Source of the DNA: a phage
Length of the DNA: 64,000 nucleotides
Assembly (NCBI GenBank): GCA_012557565.1
Contig: GCA_012557565.1_3926.1
Reading direction: 5' to 3' (one strand)
A program made the translations under genes and the position numbers. The notes beneath the pieces are model-generated. The model was given only the letters and a program-made list of their open reading frames with translations, was not told the DNA's origin and made no database searches. This document shows positions 32,184 through 57,287 of this stretch, piece after piece. Numbering within the stretch: position 1 is the first letter of the stretch; every line of letters begins with the position of its first letter.

Positions 32184-32268
32184 AGTACTTTACATGGGGT
32201 TTATAAATTGCTAGTATAAGCCCCAGATAAAGAGCTTTACCAACAATCCTAAACTGGAGAATCTAAAA

Positions 32269-32649
32269 ATGAAATATCGTGCGCCTAAATTTATCAACAA
32301 AGAAAACTTTCGTGATGCTCTGGAAAATTCCATGAATGAGCAGTTCAAAGGTAAAATCATTGTTGTTCACGCTTACAATTTTAAGTATGATGTAAATGGT
32401 AACAAGATAAACCACTACACCGCTACAATGTTAGATGGTACACTCTCAGGAGAAAAGGCTATTATAAATGCACTGGCTGGACGTGGTAAAACGTTAATCC
32501 GTTGCGATAAGCGCCGCTATCAAGGAAGTGCTTATGGTTATGAGGATGCAATCTATCATCTTGATAACATGGGTTACAACGTGGTAAAAGCTGGAGTATC
32601 TCAAATGATTGGCAGTGATGGCTATGTAACAATCTTTGAAATTAACTAA
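32269..32649 (+). CDS. hypothetical protein (cassette gene 2)
   Basis: 126 aa; conserved leader. Confidence 0.55.
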   Translation: MKYRAPKFINKENFRDALENSMNEQFKGKIIVVHAYNFKYDVNGNKINHYTATMLDGTLSGEKAIINALAGRGKTLIRCDKRRYQGSAYGYEDAIYHLDNMGYNVVKAGVSQMIGSDGYVTIFEIN

Positions 32650-34317: not shown

Positions 34318-34382
34318 AGTATTTATCAACGGGGAGGGAAAACTCCCCCACTAAGCAAAATTCCTAAACTGGAGAATCTAAA

Positions 34383-34655
34383 ATGTATACAACTAACAAT
34401 GGTCATACCCTTAATGTAACTCTAAAGCACTATGTAGACGGTGTATTGAACTTTGAAGAGTTAAGAGCAGAACAGCATTTATTAGACTGGCAAGTAGCAG
34501 GACTGCAAAAAACTGCTACGGGGTACGGTACAAAAATTCCTACATCTTGGAAAGTACGCTATTTAGGAAAGTTACGAAGAATTTATCAAGATGTTTATAG
34601 CAATAGTGGTGTAAGTTACATTATTGTTAACGGTAAAAAGTTGTATTTAGTCTAA
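34383..34655 (+). CDS. hypothetical protein (cassette gene 6)
   Basis: 90 aa; conserved leader. Confidence 0.55.
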   Translation: MYTTNNGHTLNVTLKHYVDGVLNFEELRAEQHLLDWQVAGLQKTATGYGTKIPTSWKVRYLGKLRRIYQDVYSNSGVSYIIVNGKKLYLV

Positions 34656-36084: not shown

Positions 36085-36171
36085 TTGACACTGGAAACGC
36101 AAACAAGTAAAGTATTTATCAACGGGGAGGGAATGACCTTCCCCAACAATCCTAAACTGGAGAATCTAAAA

Positions 36172-36513
36172 ATGGCATACGTAACAATTATCACTGATAA
36201 AGAAAACTCTTCTTGGTCTACACAAGTAAACGACAAAATGACACCTATGCAATGCCTCAAATACTTTGAGCAATGGAACAGGGGGGAAGATGTAAGTCCT
36301 TTCCAAGTAATGCAGGTTGTGCATGTTGACAATGAAGGGAACAAAACTACACTTAACACTGAATACTATGCTACACGTTTTGATACTCGCAAAGAAGCTA
36401 TGCGGGAACTAAGAGAAAAGGGCTATAGTCACATTGCCGCTTTGATTTGGTCTGATTTGCTTAAAAAACAAGCATTAACCTATGTCAAGCCAGAAAAAAT
36501 CTTTATAAGCTAA
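36172..36513 (+). CDS. hypothetical protein (cassette gene 9)
   Basis: Track ORF 36085-36513 trimmed to ATG 36172 directly after the conserved leader. Confidence 0.55.
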   Translation: MAYVTIITDKENSSWSTQVNDKMTPMQCLKYFEQWNRGEDVSPFQVMQVVHVDNEGNKTTLNTEYYATRFDTRKEAMRELREKGYSHIAALIWSDLLKKQALTYVKPEKIFIS

Positions 36514-36711
36514 TCAATGACTTACAAAAATCTTTGAAAAAACTGTTGACAATACCCCTTGACATTGATAGATTTGTTCGAGGGGGTTTATCTAAAGGGA
36601 TTCACTTAAAAGATTCTTTATAGATAAGCTGAAAATTCTCTTGCAATGGGTTATCAAAATCTGTATAGTTTCAATCAAGCAATGAAACAATCCTAAACTG
36701 GAGAATCTAAG

Positions 36712-36849
36712 ATGTTAGAAGTCATTAAAAACCCTATCTTGTGTGGAATGATTGTATCTTTCGTTATTCCTTTTGGTCTTCTGATAGCAAGTGAAATTCA
36801 AGATTATTTCTTCAATAAAAAGCTTGCAATGACCAACAAAAACAAGTAA
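36712..36849 (+). CDS. small membrane protein (45 aa, cassette gene 10)
   Basis: Own translation MLEVIKNPILCGMIVSFVIPFGLLIASEIQDYFFNKKLAMTNKNK; conserved leader; below track cutoff. Confidence 0.45.
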   Translation: MLEVIKNPILCGMIVSFVIPFGLLIASEIQDYFFNKKLAMTNKNK

Positions 36850-36911
36850 AGTACTTATCAACGGGGAAGGATAGGACTTCCCCACTAAATCCTAAACTGG
36901 AGAATCTAAAA

Positions 36912-37439
36912 ATGAATAAGTTTCAAGCTATCAATCATATCCGTTCCAATGCCGTGATGAGCAAGCCAGTAAAAGACACTTTCGAATTTCGCTGCAATGA
37001 CAAGTTGTTTGCAGTCATTACGAAAGGGGAGGATAAAAAATATTATGTACATCGCCAAAACGTTAAGGTAGTAACAGCAGATAACTTTATGCAAGCTGTT
37101 GCAACAATCCTCCCTGATTTTATGGCACTAGTCGCAGAACTTTGTGAACATTGCATCAAATCATCAAAAGAAGAGTTAAACCGCTTTAAAATGGCTTATG
37201 AGCGCTCTATCAAGTCCCATAACATGTATATCATGCCGTTGGCACATGGGATTATGGCGATGGGTACAGGTTGCCACCCTTGCAAGCTTTACGACGTAGA
37301 AAACATCTATCTAAGCGAGACAAAAGACAGTGATTTTAACTTACAGTTAGGGCAAGCATTGAATGATATGATTAAACTACACGAAAAATCTGTAAAAGAT
37401 ATGGAAAAAGAGCTTGACGAAATCATCAGAACTCTATAA
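36912..37439 (+). CDS. hypothetical protein (cassette gene 11)
   Basis: 175 aa; conserved leader. Confidence 0.55.
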   Translation: MNKFQAINHIRSNAVMSKPVKDTFEFRCNDKLFAVITKGEDKKYYVHRQNVKVVTADNFMQAVATILPDFMALVAELCEHCIKSSKEELNRFKMAYERSIKSHNMYIMPLAHGIMAMGTGCHPCKLYDVENIYLSETKDSDFNLQLGQALNDMIKLHEKSVKDMEKELDEIIRTL

Positions 37440-37498
37440 AGTACTCATCAACGGGGAGGGAATGACCTTCCCCAACAATCCTAAACTGGAGACTAGAA

Positions 37499-37762
37499 AT
37501 GAATAACGCAGAAATCACTATCCTGTTACAGATTGGTACTGACAAAGAAGATATCCAACTTTGCAAACGTATAGAAAGTGACTGGTTTAACGGTGAAATC
37601 ATCGCAGAATCTTATGAAGTAGTTGGATTCATGAATGGTGAAATTGTAAGCCATTTCGGTTTAACTAAATCTGAAGCCGTTGCAAAGTATGACGTTTTAT
37701 CTTGTGAGATTCTTACAAAATACAATGAAAAAAGACTTGCAACTTATGCAGCAATGAATTAA
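37499..37762 (+). CDS. hypothetical protein (cassette gene 12)
   Basis: 87 aa; conserved leader. Confidence 0.55.
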   Translation: MNNAEITILLQIGTDKEDIQLCKRIESDWFNGEIIAESYEVVGFMNGEIVSHFGLTKSEAVAKYDVLSCEILTKYNEKRLATYAAMN

Positions 37763-37827
37763 TATTACTTTCAACGGGGAGGGAATGACCTTCCCCACTA
37801 AACAACCCTAAACTGGAGACTTAAAAG

Positions 37828-38004
37828 ATGAATTTTGAACAGCGTATGATTGCAAAATTTGGTGCTAAACGTTGGGAAGAAATGAAAAAAGAGCATGAAG
37901 AAAAGAAAAATGAAGAGATGGTAGTCATCACTGGTACAGACTTGTTAAATCATTCAGTTACTAACTACATCATTTCCGGTAACTCTTACAAGAAAGTGAT
38001 TTAA
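37828..38004 (+). CDS. hypothetical small protein (58 aa, cassette gene 13)
   Basis: Own translation MNFEQRMIAKFGAKRWEEMKKEHEEKKNEEM...; conserved leader. Confidence 0.45.
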   Translation: MNFEQRMIAKFGAKRWEEMKKEHEEKKNEEMVVITGTDLLNHSVTNYIISGNSYKKVI

Positions 38005-38080
38005 AGTATTGACAAGGGGGCTTCAAAGCCCCTACTATAGAGACTCAATAAACAATAATCCTAAACTGGAGATTCTAAAA

Positions 38081-38329
38081 ATGGCAACTATCCGCGCAAC
38101 TGTTAACAATTTTGGTTTTTATGCTCTGGACGTTAAGTTTGACATGGTAAACACTGGAAATGCTTTTGATATGGTTGATATGTGTCTGAAAGCAACTGTG
38201 AAAGAATACAACCCTGCTGAATGGTTCTGGAAAGAAACGAAAGAGGAGATTTTAGCAAATGGCGTTTTATCTTACTATTGGGGCGATTCTCTTATCTCTA
38301 TCTATTACGATAAAGAAGGCCGCAACTAA
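38081..38329 (+). CDS. hypothetical protein (cassette gene 14)
   Basis: Track ORF 38009-38329 trimmed to ATG 38081 after the conserved leader. Confidence 0.55.
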   Translation: MATIRATVNNFGFYALDVKFDMVNTGNAFDMVDMCLKATVKEYNPAEWFWKETKEEILANGVLSYYWGDSLISIYYDKEGRN

Positions 38330-38369
38330 CAAGACGCCGCAACGGGGCAAATAGCCCCAGACACCTTTA

Positions 38370-38391
38370 CAGCCCCTTCAATGGGGCTTTT
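38370..38391 (+). terminator. rho-independent terminator ending the plus-strand block
   Basis: AGCCCC-ttcaat-GGGGCT then TTTTT. Confidence 0.7.
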
Positions 38392-38814
38392 TGACGTCTA
38401 TACAGAACCCTTCCTAGAATCTTACCAGACCTTTAGAATAATAACTCTATAGCTTACTCTATATCATCTTATCAAGTCAACTAACTTTTCCCTTAAATAT
38501 AAGCCCATAACCCGAAAGGGAAGGGCAATCCCTAAAACGCCCTAAAACGCTCTATACGGGCTTATCATCTCATCTTAAGCAATCATATTAACCACTTCTT
38601 AAAAGCCCTTTATAGAGCTTTCTAGAGCCTTAAAAGAATCTTATAAGGGGTATAAGCTTTATTATCTCGTTAGTATCTTGTGAATAGTTAAACAGGGGCT
38701 TGATAATAGCTTCAAAGTATGCTATGGAGTCTAAAAAGAGCTTAAAAGTAACGTAAAAGTTAGCCCCCTTTACATTCTCTTAACAAAATCTTAACAAATG
38801 CAACATAGTTATGC

Positions 38815-38865
38815 TTGTTAGCCCCTTGTTAAATCCTTGTTAGTGGTATGTTAAGAGCTTGTTAG
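38815..38865 (+). repeat. phased array of 5 TGTTA(G/A) motifs at 11-bp spacing
   Basis: Motif starts at 38815, 38826, 38837, 38848, 38859; inverted-orientation copies (TTAACAA) at 38779 and 38790. Confidence 0.8.
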
Positions 38866-39126
38866 ACACTTTGAAGTCCCTGTATAAGCCCCTGTAAAGG
38901 GCTATAAAGAGCTATATAGTCAGTTGGGCTATAGATACTAGTAAGAACCTTAGAAGAGGTCACACAGAGCTATACAGGGCTTTTAAGAGGTATGTTTAGA
39001 GAATCACTGAGAGGGATAGGGAACGATAAGAGAAGAGATAGTGACCATGTTAATAGATTGTTAAACATGTTAAGAACTTAATAGACACTTGTTAATAATC
39101 TTAACAAAATAACTTTTAAATTTAAC

Positions 39127-39268
39127 ATGTTAGGGACTTGTTAGCATCTTGTTAGAACCTTGTAAGAACTGTTAAGCACTTGTTACACCCTTGTTAGTTC
39201 TGTTAAGAAACTGTTAAGAACTTTAGAGACTTGTTAGGGACTTGTTAGAGTTGTAAAGAAATTGTTAA
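39127..39268 (+). repeat. helically phased array of 14 (C)TTGTTAG-type motifs
   Basis: Motif starts 39127, 39138, 39149, 39160, 39169, 39180, 39191, 39200, 39211, 39221, 39231, 39242, 39251, 39262; spacings 9-11 bp, mean about 10.4. Confidence 0.85.
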
Positions 39269-39335
39269 TGATATTTTAAGATTTTGCAAAGGGGATGTTA
39301 CAGGGCTGTTAAGGGCTACTAAGCAGATATACATC

Positions 39336-39359
39336 CATGAGGTAGATTCTACCGAATCC
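39336..39359 (+). repeat. 24-bp direct repeat ATGAGrTAGATTCTAyCGAATCCA, copy 1 (internal GATTC/GAATC palindrome)
   Basis: Near-identical copy at 39959-39982. Confidence 0.75.
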
Positions 39360-39958
39360 ACTAGTAGATATTTTTCAGATTCTCCCAAGAACCTAAAAAG
39401 TGACCTACCTAGTCTATTTTATAAAAATTTTATAGAACTGAATAACTATCTATACACTATCTTATATAAAACAGGAATTAACAGGCTTATAAGATATCTT
39501 GTTAGTAACGTGTTAGACCTTGTAGGATAAGCCTTAGAAGGGAATACCTGTTTAGTGTTATATAACAGTCTATATAGAGGCTTAGTAATCCCTAGTGATT
39601 CTGCTATATAGGGTACTATCTTGGACATAATGGGTTACTGTTAAGTAACACAGATAACCTAGAGATTAAGATGGGTATAGGGGCTTCTAAGGGGCTAGGA
39701 AGAGGTTAGGAAGGTGATTGTATAGGGTTGATTAATGGTAGGCTTAGAAGGCTTTATAGAGGGCTATATAGAGAGCACTATTTAGGGACTAAGAGGCTAT
39801 ATAGATACTATATAATACTATATAGAGATGATGCTTAGAGAGGGTGTTTAGAAGGGTATAGATATTTTATCACATATCATGGTGACCCAAGATGAACGGA
39901 GTGAATCCCAAATTTTATAAAAATATAAATTTCGTAAATTTTACTCAATAAAAACCCC

Positions 39959-39982
39959 TATGAGATAGATTCTATCGAATCC
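39959..39982 (+). repeat. 24-bp direct repeat, copy 2
   Basis: Matches 39336-39359 with two mismatches. Confidence 0.75.
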
Positions 39983-40003
39983 ATTTTAAGGGGCTGTATA
40001 GTC

Positions 40004-40675
40004 TTACATCAATTCACTAAGCATGGCTTGCAATGAAGTTTTAGAAGTCTGGAAGAAGTGTGTGAACCCATTATGACGTTCTCTTACCTGAATCATTATC
40101 TGGTCACCCTTAATCGGGTGTGAACTAATATGGTATTCATTCATGTTCAGTACAACACCCAAACCATCTATAATGTGTCTGAGTATGTCATATTCAACAA
40201 ATTCTTCTTTACCTGTGACCTTGATACAAACACCTTTGTTGGTTCTCTTAGGGTTTATATCTTCCATAACCAGCATTTGTTGTCCACCAAGAGAAATCAT
40301 AGAGAACTCTTTACGGTTCTGCTGCTTAACATACATCTCAAGTTTCTTCAAAGTATCTTCAAAGAACGGATAAGATTTCTTGACAAAGATACCTTCAAGT
40401 GGCTCTTTACCTGAATCTTCTCGTTCCATCTTAAGTCGATTAACAAGTAATTCTAAAGACCACTTCTCACTTTCATCAAGATATGTATTGATATCATCTA
40501 GACTCAGTACCAGATACTTTCTTTCAAGTTCAAACTTTTTCATCTCTATCAAATCCTTAAAACATTTCTTAGTAATTGCTTCCCATTCTTCGGAGTTCTT
40601 TCTCTTCCTCTTCAGATGGGGAACCATATCTGTTAAGTTCTTCCAACTCTTCTTCAGTAGGTGTCCCATAATCAC
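40004..40675 (-). CDS. hypothetical protein
   Basis: 223-aa ORF, last gene of the minus-strand module. Confidence 0.5.
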   Translation of the reverse strand: MIMGHLLKKSWKNLTDMVPHLKRKRKNSEEWEAITKKCFKDLIEMKKFELERKYLVLSLDDINTYLDESEKWSLELLVNRLKMEREDSGKEPLEGIFVKKSYPFFEDTLKKLEMYVKQQNRKEFSMISLGGQQMLVMEDINPKRTNKGVCIKVTGKEEFVEYDILRHIIDGLGVVLNMNEYHISSHPIKGDQIMIQVRERHNGFTHFFQTSKTSLQAMLSELM

Positions 40676-53654: not shown

Positions 53655-53882
53655 ATGTTTAAACTCATAGTTGAAAAACACCCAGAAGATGACAAGCTTG
53701 AAACAGGGAGATTTGGAGATACTTTCTTTATCAGAGTTGGCTGGAAAGCTGACCCATTAGAAGTTAGAAAGATTGTCTACAACTTTGCTGGTTTGGAATT
53801 AAAGCAAGTCATCTTTGAAACAATGTTGCCAGAAAATAAAGATACATGCAATAACGCATATATTCTTACAAGAGTTAGTTAG
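53655..53882 (+). CDS. hypothetical small protein, tandem paralog 2
   Basis: 75 aa MFKLIVEKHPEDDKLE... paralogous to 53383-53610 (shared FETMLPENKDTCNNAYILTRV). Confidence 0.55.
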   Translation: MFKLIVEKHPEDDKLETGRFGDTFFIRVGWKADPLEVRKIVYNFAGLELKQVIFETMLPENKDTCNNAYILTRVS

Positions 53883-53956
53883 GGGATTAGTTTACAAGGT
53901 TAAAACCTCGGTCTTTGAAATCGAAGAAGTTGGTTCAATTCCAACATCCCCCGCCA
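53881..53956 (+). tRNA. tRNA-Gln(TTG)
   Basis: D-stem GTTT/AAAC, anticodon stem TCGGT/ATCGA, loop CTTTGAA, T-arm GTTGG-TTCAATT-CCAAC, CCA; 1:72 mismatch. Confidence 0.7.
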
Positions 53957-53958
53957 AT

Positions 53959-54037
53959 GCTCCATTACTCCAATTGGCAGAGAGGCCAGACTTAAAATCT
54001 GTGTTATGTATCGGTTCGAATCCGATATGGAGTACCA
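53959..54037 (+). tRNA. tRNA-Leu(TAA)-like, short variable arm
   Basis: Acceptor GCTCCAT/ATGGAGT, 3-bp D-stem, loop CTTAAAA, about 7-nt variable region, A73, CCA; 79 nt. Confidence 0.6.
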
Positions 54038-54043
54038 AATATT

Positions 54044-54119
54044 AGCAGTGTAGCATAACTGGCAATGCTCCAGCCTCTGAAGCTGAAAGATTAAGGTTCA
54101 AATCCTTACGCTGCTGCCA
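54044..54119 (+). tRNA. tRNA-Gln(CTG)
   Basis: D-arm GCAT-AACTGGCA-ATGC, loop CTCTGAA, T-arm TAAGG-TTCAAAT-CCTTA, CCA. Confidence 0.7.
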
Positions 54120-54121
54120 CT

Positions 54122-54149
54122 TCTAAGGGTTCTTACGAGAGTCCTTAAA
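54122..54149 (+). other. conserved-loop hairpin (loop GTTCTTACGAGAGT), copy 2
   Basis: Stem TAAGG/CCTTA around the loop seen at 50798-50811. Confidence 0.6.
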
Positions 54150-54150
54150 T

Positions 54151-54227
54151 GTGGCCTTATCATAAATGGATAATGACCCATGCTGTGAACATGGTCTATA
54201 CGGGTTCGATTCCCGTAGGTCACCCCA
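54151..54227 (+). tRNA. tRNA-His(GTG)
   Basis: Acceptor GTGGCCT/AGGTCAC, D-stem TCAT/ATGA, anticodon stem CCATG/CATGG, loop CTGTGAA, C73, CCA; no encoded G-1. Confidence 0.75.
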
Positions 54228-54235
54228 ATTTTAAT

Positions 54236-54311
54236 AGCTCAATTAGCTTATATGGTTAAAGCGCGTGTCTGAAAAACATGAGAACAGGGTTCAAATCCCG
54301 ATGGGCTACCA
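54236..54311 (+). tRNA. tRNA-Phe(GAA), imperfect T-stem
   Basis: Anticodon stem CGTGT/ACATG, loop CTGAAAA, D-stem GCTT/AAGC, CCA; T-stem has mismatches. Confidence 0.55.
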
Positions 54312-54327
54312 ACTTTATAGGTGCATA

Positions 54328-55062
54328 ATGAAAGAGATGACAGAACAAGGTAAAGAGATTTTTAATCTCCTTAAAACTGGTAATGGGTTCTCTAACCCTC
54401 TTATTACTGGTGCAGCAGTTCTTGGTGGTACTGTAGCTGCTTCTCAATCATTAGTGAACTCAATTAGTTCTGTAACAGACCCTGCAACACAACAGATTTT
54501 AGTTGCTGCTGGACTGACAACAGCCTTATTAGGAAGCTTCACAACAAGCCTTGGAAGTACAACTTCAACGACAAGTACACTCACTGAGTATGGACAAAAG
54601 TCTGTAGATGAGTTTTCACAACGTATGCAAGTAGCTAAAGGTTACTCTAACGTTATGGGAGCAGCAGGTGAACAGGTTGGATGTACACCGTTTAGCGGTA
54701 TCATGGGCGTAGCTACCGAGTACGGTAATAAAGCGATGGATTTGATTAATACCTCCATAGACGCTGTAAATAGCGTCCTAAGCGATTTGCAAGATGCAAT
54801 CGACCAAGGACTAGATACAATCTCTGAACTCGCTACACAGGCCGTTACAGCGATTAATGAGGGTATTACAAAGATTACTGCATATGCTAATGAAGTAACT
54901 CAGATGATTGCAGATGAAGCAGCACTGATTGCAGAATACCTGAAAACAAATATTAATGGTTTCCTTGCGAATGTTCTACCAAGCTGGTTTGACGATTCAT
55001 GTAAAACTGGTGTGATTGATACTATCGCAACTCCAGAGATGAAAGAAGCTCTGAACAAATAA
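54328..55062 (+). CDS. hypothetical Thr/Ser/Ala-rich protein inside the tRNA cluster
   Basis: Track ORF 54265-55062 overlaps tRNA-Phe; trimmed to ATG 54328 (AGGTG 4 nt upstream). Confidence 0.5.
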   Translation: MKEMTEQGKEIFNLLKTGNGFSNPLITGAAVLGGTVAASQSLVNSISSVTDPATQQILVAAGLTTALLGSFTTSLGSTTSTTSTLTEYGQKSVDEFSQRMQVAKGYSNVMGAAGEQVGCTPFSGIMGVATEYGNKAMDLINTSIDAVNSVLSDLQDAIDQGLDTISELATQAVTAINEGITKITAYANEVTQMIADEAALIAEYLKTNINGFLANVLPSWFDDSCKTGVIDTIATPEMKEALNK

Positions 55063-55063
55063 T

Positions 55064-55156
55064 GGAAGATTAACCCTAAAAGGTAAGGGAGCAGTTTGCT
55101 AAACTGCCAGTAACCGAGAAATCGGCGTACCAGTTCAAGTCTGGTATCTTCCTCCA
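55064..55156 (+). tRNA. tRNA-Ser(GCT), class II
   Basis: Perfect acceptor GGAAGAT/ATCTTCC, anticodon stem GCAGT/ACTGC, loop TTGCTAA, long variable arm, T-arm ACCAG-TTCAAGT-CTGGT, CCA. Confidence 0.75.
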
Positions 55157-55162
55157 AATTAT

Positions 55163-55238
55163 GTGTCGGTGTCAGAAATGGTTATGTGCCTGTCTGCAAA
55201 ACAGGTTTATGAGGGTTCGAGTCCCTTCCGATACTCCA
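55163..55238 (+). tRNA. tRNA-Cys(GCA)
   Basis: Anticodon stem CCTGT/ACAGG, loop CTGCAAA, T-arm GAGGG-TTCGAGT-CCCTT, CCA. Confidence 0.75.
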
Positions 55239-55457: not shown

Positions 55458-55664
55458 ATGAACGAGACTAATGTTTACAAAGAACTATATGAAACTCAGA
55501 AACAGGCTCAGATGCTTCAGGCAACTGTAATGGCTGTGGCTGAACGTTTAATTGTTGCAACTGGTATTAACCCACAAGAAGCAACGATGGATAAACTTCT
55601 TAATTTAGTAGATGAAAAGTTTGGTGTAGAACCTAAACAGGAATCTGAAGAAGTTTCTGAATAA
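55458..55664 (+). CDS. hypothetical small protein, first gene of morphogenesis operon
   Basis: 68 aa; RBS GGAGAAA upstream; immediately upstream of large terminase. Confidence 0.5.
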   Translation: MNETNVYKELYETQKQAQMLQATVMAVAERLIVATGINPQEATMDKLLNLVDEKFGVEPKQESEEVSE

Positions 55665-55685
55665 TTCTATTTGCAGAGGTGCTTA

Positions 55686-57287
55686 ATGGACTTAAATGTT
55701 ATTAAGCAGAAGCGAGTGGAAGATGTAAGGAAAGTCCTAGCAGGTGAGTTGGGGCTTTCTGAAGAAGTAAAAGATATTATCAAATCCTTTGGTAAAGACC
55801 CCTCTAAATTCCTTCCAACTCAAATTCTGACTTTATTAAGATACACCCCAGACCAAGTAAGACTCATCTTTAAATTGATGACTGACAAGAACTATGTAGC
55901 TCCACAGCCTGGCTCTCAAGAGGTATTCTTGAACACTAATGCTGACTTGGTACTATATGGTGGTGCTGCTGGTGCTGGTAAGACTGCTGCCCTATTAATG
56001 GACTCACTAAGGTTCATTGAAGACCCAAACTATAATGCTGTTTATTTCCGTCGAAATACAACACAGTTACAAGGTGGTCTATGGCCTGCGGCTAAGAAGT
56101 TATTTGGTAAGTTTGGTGGAGTTCCACATGAACAGAAAATGACTATCACTTTCCCTTCTGGAGCAACTATCAAGTTTACTTATTTGGAACTTGAGAAACA
56201 CTCAGAAGGTCACCAAGGTATCGAATACTCAGCTATTTATTTCGACGAAGGTACACACTTCTCGGCTTCACAGATTTCATATCTTCAGACACGTTTACGT
56301 TCTGGTGCTGAAGGTGACTCATATATGAAAATCTCAATGAACCCAGATAGAGACCACTTTATTTATGATTGGGTAGAACCTTTCCTAGATGATGCTGGAT
56401 ATCCAGACCCAGAGAAGTGCGGCAGGATTCGTTGGTATGTTATGAATGATGGTGTCATGGTTTCTGATTGGGATAGAGATAAAATTCTTGAAATGTTCCC
56501 TCTTGAGATTCCTCAAACATATACCTTTATTTCCGGTACAATCGATGACAACCCTATTCTAGATTTCCTTGAACCTAAGTATCGTGGTAAATTAGAAAAC
56601 AACACACCAGTTAACGTTGCACGTTTACGTTTTGGTAACTGGAAAGCTCGTGCTGAAGGTTCAAACTACTGGCAAAGACAATGGTGTGAAATTGTTGATA
56701 GTGTTCCAGCAGACGTATTTGACGTAAGAGCATGGGACTTAGCAGCAACATTACCTTCTGAGGTTAACCCTAACCCTGACTGGACAGCAGGTGTTAAAAT
56801 GGGTAAATCTAAAAAAGATGGTTGCTATTATGTGATTAACGTAGTAAGATTTAGAGATAGACCTTCTGGAGTTGAAACACAAATTAACCAAACTGCTGAA
56901 GGTGATGGTAAGCGCACAGGTATTTTTATCCCTCAAGACCCCGGCGCTGCTGGTAAATCCTACGCAACCTCCCTTATTAGAAAACTTGCTGAGAAAGGTT
57001 TCCGAGCAAGAGCTAAACCAACAAATAAAGATAAAGTCACCCGTTTTGCAGGTTTCTCTGCTGCTTCTGAGGCAGGACTTGTCAAAATTGTTAGAGGCTC
57101 TTGGAATGAAGCATATTTCCAAGAACTAGAAGGTTTTTGTGGTGATGGTCGTACTAAGGATGACCAAGTGGATGCTACCAGTGATGCTTTCAACAGTCTA
57201 AACGAAGTTAAACTATTCAAGCCACCTTCAATGGGTGCTCATACAGATATTATGAAGAGTAATCCATATCAGGGGCTAAGACGATAA
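55686..57287 (+). CDS. terminase large subunit
   Basis: Walker A LYGGAAGAGKTAALL near N-terminus, size and C-terminal nuclease-like region; start set to ATG 55686 (GAGGTG upstream) rather than track TTG 55671. Confidence 0.75.
   Translation: MDLNVIKQKRVEDVRKVLAGELGLSEEVKDIIKSFGKDPSKFLPTQILTLLRYTPDQVRLIFKLMTDKNYVAPQPGSQEVFLNTNADLVLYGGAAGAGKTAALLMDSLRFIEDPNYNAVYFRRNTTQLQGGLWPAAKKLFGKFGGVPHEQKMTITFPSGATIKFTYLELEKHSEGHQGIEYSAIYFDEGTHFSASQISYLQTRLRSGAEGDSYMKISMNPDRDHFIYDWVEPFLDDAGYPDPEKCGRIRWYVMNDGVMVSDWDRDKILEMFPLEIPQTYTFISGTIDDNPILDFLEPKYRGKLENNTPVNVARLRFGNWKARAEGSNYWQRQWCEIVDSVPADVFDVRAWDLAATLPSEVNPNPDWTAGVKMGKSKKDGCYYVINVVRFRDRPSGVETQINQTAEGDGKRTGIFIPQDPGAAGKSYATSLIRKLAEKGFRARAKPTNKDKVTRFAGFSAASEAGLVKIVRGSWNEAYFQELEGFCGDGRTKDDQVDATSDAFNSLNEVKLFKPPSMGAHTDIMKSNPYQGLRR

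Follow-up and report, generated by a model that had tools for sequence, protein, structure and literature searches.

We analysed a 64,000-nucleotide stretch of phage DNA (NCBI GenBank assembly GCA_012557565.1, contig GCA_012557565.1_3926.1; hereafter the window), which comes from a Felix O1-like myovirus (Ounavirinae, Mooglevirus). Our subject is the gap of about 1.6 kb at 38396-40003, which separates two convergent gene modules and lies between the homologues of Felix O1 gene 23 and gene 24. The final gene of the plus-strand module stops at 38329 and is followed by an intrinsic terminator, a hairpin with a U-run at 38370-38391 on the plus strand (GCCCC-loop-GGGGC, then T5; dG -15.5 kcal/mol, z -3.96). 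This terminator is kept in 13 of 13 relatives and is annotated at the equivalent position in Michonne and Mordin. The minus-strand module ends with a gene stop at 40004, beyond which a two-tier hairpin with a U-run lies on the minus strand (39947-39995; dG -20.2, z -3.24); it is annotated in Michonne. A simple terminator scan made zero calls here, though both hairpins fold well. With terminators on both sides, transcription from either module should halt before the two non-coding arms described below. The coordinates and the convergent setting given in a preliminary description of this DNA, made from the sequence alone, are as described. We argue that the gap is very probably the concatemer junction of a Felix O1-like phage that packages its DNA with short exact direct terminal repeats (DTRs), a reading that rests on homology to relatives with documented ends.

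The DTR identity of this region is already documented in close relatives. For UAB_Phi87, Bal31 digestion combined with run-off sequencing is reported to give a DTR of 608 bp (Bardina et al. 2016, PMC4837284); PhageTerm is reported to give 613 bp for Ro111lw (PMC6454146) and 581 bp for Pr103Blw (PMC8303462), and Mooglevirus HP1 is said to have “direct repeats at both termini” (PMC9120918). The published UAB_Phi87 repeat (Fig. S1, PMC4837284) aligns end to end (query positions 2-590) with window 38772-39322 at 72% identity. GenBank records tell the same story. Identical terminal copies are present in the records of HP1 (570 bp, annotated as repeat_region), Pr103Blw (581 bp, annotated as short DTR), Ro111lw (613 bp) and NBEco005 (651 bp), for all four of which both record ends were read. 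These copies start with GCCCCCTTAACATTT and end with TGTTAAGGGCTACC, at positions equivalent to 38763 and 39320 of the window, where the window itself reads GCCCCCTTTACATTC and ...TGTTAAGGGCTACT. The records of pEP20 and EcSzw_1, whose ends were also read, are opened at window 39319-39321, the right boundary of the DTR; according to BLAST coordinates the records of ECP2307 and NBEco004 end at the same boundary. The record of Erwinia phage Hena2 begins with CCACTTTTACATTTCGTTAACAA, which is the equivalent left DTR end. One reported “DTR”, that of KMM2, was rejected: it is a 64-bp assembly overlap, away from the true boundaries. Among the options raised in the preliminary description was a role in packaging or genome termini, with the suggestion to check whether relatives place their ends here. 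The check was run and the ends were found at positions equivalent to 38763 and 39320; the mapped UAB_Phi87 repeat and the terminal copies of four records align here, and this option is thus borne out.

Homology and matching boundaries place the DTR of the window phage at 38763-39320 (558 bp), within a few nucleotides. The sequence occurs once in the window, as expected of a collapsed assembly, and by homology a copy should be present at both virion ends. The virion chromosome is accordingly predicted, from sequence, to start with GCCCCCTTTACAT (38763), to run through the full genome and a second DTR copy, and to end with ...TGTTAAGGGCTACT (39320). Both parts of the gap that flank the DTR are non-coding. 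The left arm (38396-38762; 367 bp) would be the unique DNA immediately inside the right-hand DTR copy in the virion, and the right arm (39321-40003; 683 bp) the unique DNA immediately inside the left-hand copy. Both flanking gene modules would then be transcribed toward the chromosome ends.

The coding potential of the gap is low. The longest open reading frames (ORFs) inside 38396-40003 are 60, 47 and 36 amino acids. No ORF of at least 40 amino acids is common to several genera among the 13 relatives, 5 of which have no such ORF at all, and 3-nt coding periodicity was not found in 38396-40003. The earlier statement that no credible ORF is present is confirmed by these results. A scan of 38000-40400 against Rfam gave no match at E ≤ 1. 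A sigma-70 scan yielded 14 sites versus 7.8±2.7 expected; the best site within the region (38391, TTGACG-18-TAGAAT) was discarded as a promoter candidate, its -35 box being unconserved and reading TTTACG in most relatives. The 60-amino acid minus-strand ORF (39446-39628) lies in the right arm. It is open in Mooglevirus (55 amino acids in HP1) and is not present in Felixounavirus and Suspvirus despite conserved DNA; it is probably not a gene. Several records (ESh19-22, pEC-M719-6WT.1, Michonne gene 111, UAB_Phi87 genes 32-34) annotate one to six “hypothetical proteins” over the junction or the DTR. These look like over-annotation, because no conserved ORF underlies them.

What fills the gap instead is a dense array of short repeats. 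The preliminary description had listed four repeat families in dozens of copies, and we compared motif counts with those in 500 dinucleotide-preserving shuffles. TGTTAR occurs 23 times on the plus strand versus 1.4±1.1 in the shuffles (maximum 5), with 5 more copies on the minus strand. CTTGTTA (12 copies), CTATAYAG (8) and CTTAAAAG (3) each compare with 0.2 in the shuffles. TTAGAAG shows the weakest excess (4 versus 0.5, with up to 4 in the shuffles). “Dozens of copies” therefore holds for TGTTA alone or for all families pooled, but not for each family singly. The families are real and above chance, but they are not independent: they are variants of a single octamer. An unbiased expectation-maximization motif search returns one unit for the whole region, namely C-T, four mostly A/T bases, and A-G (CT-N4-AG). 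There are 58 copies of it in the region versus 10.7±3.1 in the shuffles (maximum 20) and 14 per 1608 bp elsewhere in the window, so the density at the junction is far above that of the rest. The neighbouring spacings CT-N3-AG (6) and CT-N5-AG (3) are depleted.

The octamer has 33 variants, the commonest of which are TGTTAG, CTATATAG, CTTAGAAG and CTTAAAAG, and their distribution follows the three parts of the junction. The left arm has 14 octamers and zero TGTTAR; the right arm has 19 octamers, mainly of the CTATATAG and CTTAGAAG types. In all 14 phages (the window phage and the 13 relatives) the plus-strand TGTTAR copies are concentrated in the DTR (16-20 copies per phage, versus 0-1 and 2-8 in the left and right arms, respectively). 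The few reversed TGTTA(A/G) copies are located at the left tip and in the centre of the DTR. The main TGTTA(A/G) array (39126-39320, plus strand) consists of CTTGTTAG-type units at a pitch of 10-11 bp (TRF period 11, 11.7 copies) and extends to the right terminal motif ...GGGGATGTTACAGGGCTGTTAAGGGCTACT, which is near-invariant in the 14 phages. The left arm contains in addition a tandem CCCTAAAACG (38530-38554, 2.5 copies), in agreement with the duplication noted earlier.

The octamers are regularly spaced. Units lie 10-12 bp apart, a pitch of about 11 bp that holds throughout the junction. In each of its three parts the base autocorrelation has maxima at lags 10-11, 21, 31-32 and 42; at lag 11 it reaches 0.45 in the DTR and 0.36 in the left arm, versus a background maximum of 0.30. 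A periodogram of A/T versus G/C (W/S) peaks at 11.3 bp with a power of 3.49 (background 0.79±0.30), and the signal is confined to about 38400-39900. With this pitch, successive octamers should face roughly one side of the helix. Over longer distances the octamers keep phase poorly (global R 0.24 at 10.7 bp), which points to a lattice of local arrays and not to one rigid superhelix.

The same step appears in the differences among relatives. Pairwise indels are most often 11 bp (274) or 12 bp (92) long, with further peaks at 20-25 and 32-33 bp. A scan of IMG/VR with the left-boundary motif added 21 distinct DTRs that have the same boundary motifs. Pooled with those of the alignment, they represent 19 distinct DTR lengths from 558 to 658 bp, and modulo 11 these are quantised (R = 0.68, a value not reached in 20,000 random sets; p < 5e-5). 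This range rules out a fixed-distance “ruler” between the two cuts; a variable length suggests that local sequence determines where the cuts fall. Although only 116 bp of the Hena2 junction can be aligned, it keeps the lag-11 and lag-22 signal.

In the conservation alignment (the window and the 13 relatives, from three genera), most 25-nt blocks of the region are 75-94% identical to the window, versus 0.64-0.70 for the flanking coding DNA. Column identity of the left arm to the 13 relatives is 0.58-0.94. The poorly conserved blocks are sites of insertion or deletion. Octamers are more strongly conserved than the intervening spacers: against the more distant genera, identity is 0.79 at octamer positions versus 0.64 in the spacers (p = 0.012). 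The region matches 230 phage records (Mooglevirus, Felixounavirus, Suspvirus), 92 of which cover at least 80% of it; the best match is Citrobacter phage BSwM KMM4 (93.5%), and ESh19 reaches 91.2%. In Erwinia Kolesnikviruses, what matches is the right end of the DTR.

Conservation is especially strong at the two predicted cut sites. In the 14-phage alignment, hardly any position varies at either boundary or in the roughly 15 nt beyond it (GTTACGTAAATGCTA| on the left, |AAGCAGATATACATCC on the right), and the boundaries are also near-invariant across 22 DTRs. The box outside the left boundary (38748-38762, plus strand) reads GTAACGTAAAAGTTA in the window and GTTACGTAAATGCTA in most relatives and ends at the cut site TTA|G; in HP1 and Pr103Blw this context is also found in front of the right-hand DTR copy. 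The conserved box outside the right boundary (39321-39336; AAGCAGATATACATCC) is the start of the right arm. Inside the DTR, the left terminal motif (38763-38800, plus strand; GCCCCCTTTACATTCTCTTAACAAAATCTTAACAAAT) is near-invariant in the 14 phages and contains TTAACA half-sites (TGTTAA reversed) 11 bp apart, pointing into the genome. When the left-end consensus of the 22 DTRs is compared with the reverse-complemented right end, 21 of 38 positions match (p = 0.003, shuffles). With the reversed TGTTA(A/G) copies at the left tip, both virion ends show CCCTTAACA-N6-TAACA when they are read inward.

The packaging enzyme of this phage can be recognized in the window. TerL, the large terminase subunit, is encoded at 55671-57287 on the plus strand (phrog_979, E 5e-234; Pfam Terminase_6N/6C) and shares 93-96% identity with its Felixounavirus counterparts and 68% with that of Erwinia Kolesnikvirus. 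By sequence it is an ortholog of the Felix O1-group TerL, which Bardina et al. (PMC4837284) place in a DTR clade. A conserved 68-amino acid ORF (55458-55664, plus strand; phrog_4397, no assigned function) precedes TerL, with 6 nt between its end and the TerL start codon. Its location makes it a candidate for a small terminase or recognition subunit; the phage group is said to have TerL only.

By analogy with T7 and T3, replication would give head-to-tail concatemers that share one DTR per junction, and TerL would cut sequence-specifically twice, at TTA|GCCCCC and at GGGCTAC(C/T)|AAGCAG. Strand-displacement synthesis, again as in T7 and T3, would duplicate the DTR and leave a copy at each end of the packaged genome. 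As for the repeats, the anatomy of the junction suggests that the phased octamers most likely offer many sites, as a platform or a curved scaffold, to a sequence-reading protein by which the junction is marked. The TGTTA(A/G) subfamily, with its preferred orientation, would label the DTR itself, and the inward-facing CCCTTAACA motifs at both ends might position the two cuts. We are confident of what the region is, namely a DTR within a junction, and far less so of what the octamer lattice does. It is tempting to go one step further and suppose that on this lattice of about 60 helically phased sites, found from Felixounavirus to the Erwinia Kolesnikviruses, a phage protein assembles a nucleoprotein “end-organising centre”, that the register of the cut sites is under selection, and that the same protein also binds the promoter leaders. 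Selection on rotational register would explain the 11-bp steps in DTR length, and the protein would couple packaging and end handling to gene timing. We put this forward as a speculation that is unlikely to be right.

Several points weigh against our main reading of the region and its repeats. The termini of the window phage are placed by homology, and the DTR as a whole is 72-88% identical to those of relatives, although the boundary motifs are near-identical. In UAB_Phi87 the run-off ends lie 8 nt inside the record-based end on the left and 2 nt beyond it on the right. No small terminase subunit is recognisable in the window, and the T7-style duplication of the DTR is pure analogy. The bias toward 11-bp indels could stem from slippage of tandem units and not from selection on helical phase. 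Finally, octamers also cluster just behind the tandem TTGACA boxes of the two divergent promoter regions (by eye, about 7 within 690-870 and 5 within 47870-47975), where they reach 5 per 300 bp versus a mean of 0.75 for the window. Their presence in promoter leaders weakens the idea of terminase recognition and favours a general architectural or regulatory binder. A regulatory hub, the third option of the preliminary description, is conceivable.

Such a binder, a phage protein or one of the host nucleoid, would coat the ends and also act at the promoter leaders, and the arrays would serve gene timing, end protection or DNA condensation and not terminase recognition. This explanation is possible, if still doubtful, and it is compatible with the region being a DTR and junction, not exclusive of it. 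Apart from the clusters behind the TTGACA boxes, it draws support from the conservation of octamer positions above spacers and from the 11-bp pitch, which suits binding along roughly one face of the helix. However, octamers at the junction are far denser than elsewhere in the window, and the near confinement of TGTTAR to the DTR points to an end-specific role. A different proposal, which the preliminary description had raised on the strength of iterons beside AT-rich elements, is that the region, especially its right arm, is or contains a replication origin, possibly besides the termini. T7 has secondary origins near both genome ends, the two exact ATTTTATAAAAAT palindromes in the AT-rich tracts are invariant in 14 phages, and the arms are as conserved as coding DNA while being non-coding. 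We nevertheless consider an origin unlikely. There are no DnaA boxes (TTWTNCACA) in 38396-40003, and the flanking genes have no replication-related family matches and include no initiator. The turn in GC skew at 39-40 kb coincides with the switch in transcription direction and is confounded by it. Moreover, the mapped termini already account for the region. Of the iteron signature, the AT-rich palindromes are present, but the repeats are about 60 octamers at an 11-bp pitch over 1.6 kb and not a handful of long iterons with an initiator gene alongside. The origin option has thus gained no positive support.

The junction might also be thought to encode small proteins or non-coding RNAs, as the records that annotate three to six hypothetical proteins would imply. 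The 60-amino acid ORF kept in Mooglevirus could be cited for the former, and the 24-bp element described below, which forms hairpins with apparently compensating changes, for the latter. Against this, the DNA is conserved across genera with no shared ORF of the size considered above, frame-breaking 11-bp indels dominate, 3-nt periodicity is absent, Rfam gives no match, and both modules terminate before the region. We find hidden genes scarcely credible. It is likewise very improbable that the arrays are functionless products of replication slippage or recombination in DNA that needs only two cut sites. The indels do consist of whole 11-bp units, and DTR length does range over 558-658 bp. But a column identity that equals or exceeds that of the flanking genes over 1.6 kb and three genera, octamers conserved above their spacers, and a periodic design kept in Hena2 where the sequence is no longer alignable are not what slippage alone would leave. 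The identification of the region as a DTR within a concatemer junction remains our preferred reading.

The junction contains further elements outside the octamer lattice. A pair of 24-bp direct repeats (39337-39360 and 39960-39983), noted in the preliminary description, is indeed present; the copies are 22/24 identical, with 0 such pairs expected by chance. Since published DTRs are about 600 bp long, these repeats, 623 bp apart, were considered as boundary marks. They were rejected, as the DTR ends before copy 1 begins and the element is missing in several relatives. Copy 1 (plus strand; ATGAGGTAGATTCTACCGAATCCA) is an optional hairpin insertion between two CAGATAT repeats. It is present in the window phage, KMM2, KMM4, pEP20 and BPS15Q2 and absent from HP1, Michonne, Felix O1, UAB_Phi87 and others, and its block is the least conserved of the region (0.48-0.54), one of the insertion/deletion sites mentioned above. 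Copy 2 is the inner hairpin of the minus-strand terminator, which in KMM2 occurs in a version without the 24-bp insertion. More generally, the element (ATGAGRTAGATTCTAYCGAATCCA) behaves as an insertable hairpin module with patchy presence or absence at the same site across genera. Its location varies: it may sit in the loop of the minus-strand terminator, in the plus-strand terminator, or in both (e.g., EcSzw_1, BPS15Q2). The differences between the two copies in the window are paired, and one or the other of two alternative stems is preserved. The element is an optional hairpin insertion, not a packaging signal.

Both AT-rich tracts reported earlier are also found, each with an exact ATTTTATAAAAAT (at 39416 and 39912). 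The first is part of an AT-rich near-palindrome (39414-39432; CTATTTTATAAAAATTTTA) that is invariant in 14 phages; the second exact copy (39912-39924) is conserved across genera. ATTTTATAAAAAT was considered as a promoter-like element and rejected: its sole other copy in the window (32161) falls within the 3′ end of a small ORF, which gives no promoter pattern.

Some observations concern other parts of the window. The divergent promoter regions (690-870 and 47830-47980) have tandem CTTGACA boxes 13-14 bp apart, followed by the octamers CTTAAAAG, CTTTATAG, CTTAGAAG and CTTTTAAG up to the ribosome-binding site. For the promoter region at 47700-48000, identity to Shigella phage ESh19 is 100% and to 3HA14 99.3%; in Felixounavirus the region is 86-89% conserved. 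The best matches of this promoter region and of the junction differ, and the genome of the window phage is a mosaic. Between small early genes, an intergenic cassette is repeated at least six times (36099-38086, with similar copies near 32190-32270 and 34320-34385). It consists of the hairpin CAACGGGGAGGGAATGACCTTCCCC followed by CCTAAACTGGAGA(N7-9)ATG, that is, a stem-loop and a ribosome-binding site without a T-run. Upstream of TerL, 25 tRNA genes are clustered on the plus strand at 50010-55238. A DUF7217 ORF (54265-55062) overlaps tRNA-Phe at its 5′ end, and its true start is therefore probably later.

The octamer lattice, its 11-bp periodicity and the arms were not found described when PMC3185647, PMC4837284, PMC6454146, PMC8303462, PMC9120918 and PMC4591319 were searched by terms, nor did a literature search whose scope left out most subscription journals find a description of the Felix O1-like repeat architecture. 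Within these sources, the unifying octamer, the 11-bp lattice, the quantised DTR length and the inverted terminal motifs appear to be undescribed. True termini are of practical use, as many GenBank records of Felix O1-like phages are opened arbitrarily and the real ends are needed for phage engineering and for therapy dossiers. How ends are recognized and duplicated in short-repeat phages outside the T7 group is poorly understood, and the octamer lattice offers testable sites, both for tracing the protein that recognizes the ends and for asking whether the helical phase between the two cuts is important.

Compared with the DTRs of other Felix O1-like phages (UAB_Phi87, Ro111lw, Pr103Blw, HP1), that of the window shows homology over the whole repeat, the shared boundary motifs GCCCCCTTAACAT... 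and ...TGTTAAGGGCTACC, the same convergent gap and an orthologous TerL. At 558 bp it is the shortest of the DTRs compared and differs from those of relatives by whole 11-bp units; the optional 24-bp hairpin insertion lies 17 nt outside its right boundary. Outside the family the closest analogue is T7, in which a short exact DTR likewise lies in a non-coding junction. T7 has a DTR of 160 bp and 11 copies of CCTAAAG in nt 1-340, inside the DTR and its flanks; in both systems, one short motif with an A/T core occurs in many copies and one orientation in the DTR and the flanking DNA. In T3 and T7, packaging begins at the junction, and its specificity lies close to the termini (PMC3276506). The T7 junction and that of the window share no sequence homology. 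The pitch of the repeats is about 13 bp in T7 versus about 11 bp here, the junction of the window is about three times as large, and its genes are transcribed toward the ends, whereas those of T7 run away from the left end. T7 has its own RNA polymerase, which pauses at the junction, and a known small terminase subunit, gp18, while Felix O1, according to PMC3185647, encodes no RNA polymerase. With iteron origins, such as those of plasmids and the lambdoid ori, the window shares direct repeats and AT-rich tracts in non-coding DNA. Those origins have 3-7 iterons of 17-22 bp, whereas the window has about 60 octamers at helical pitch over 1.6 kb, with neither an adjacent initiator gene nor DnaA boxes, and with the genome termini mapped to the middle of the region.

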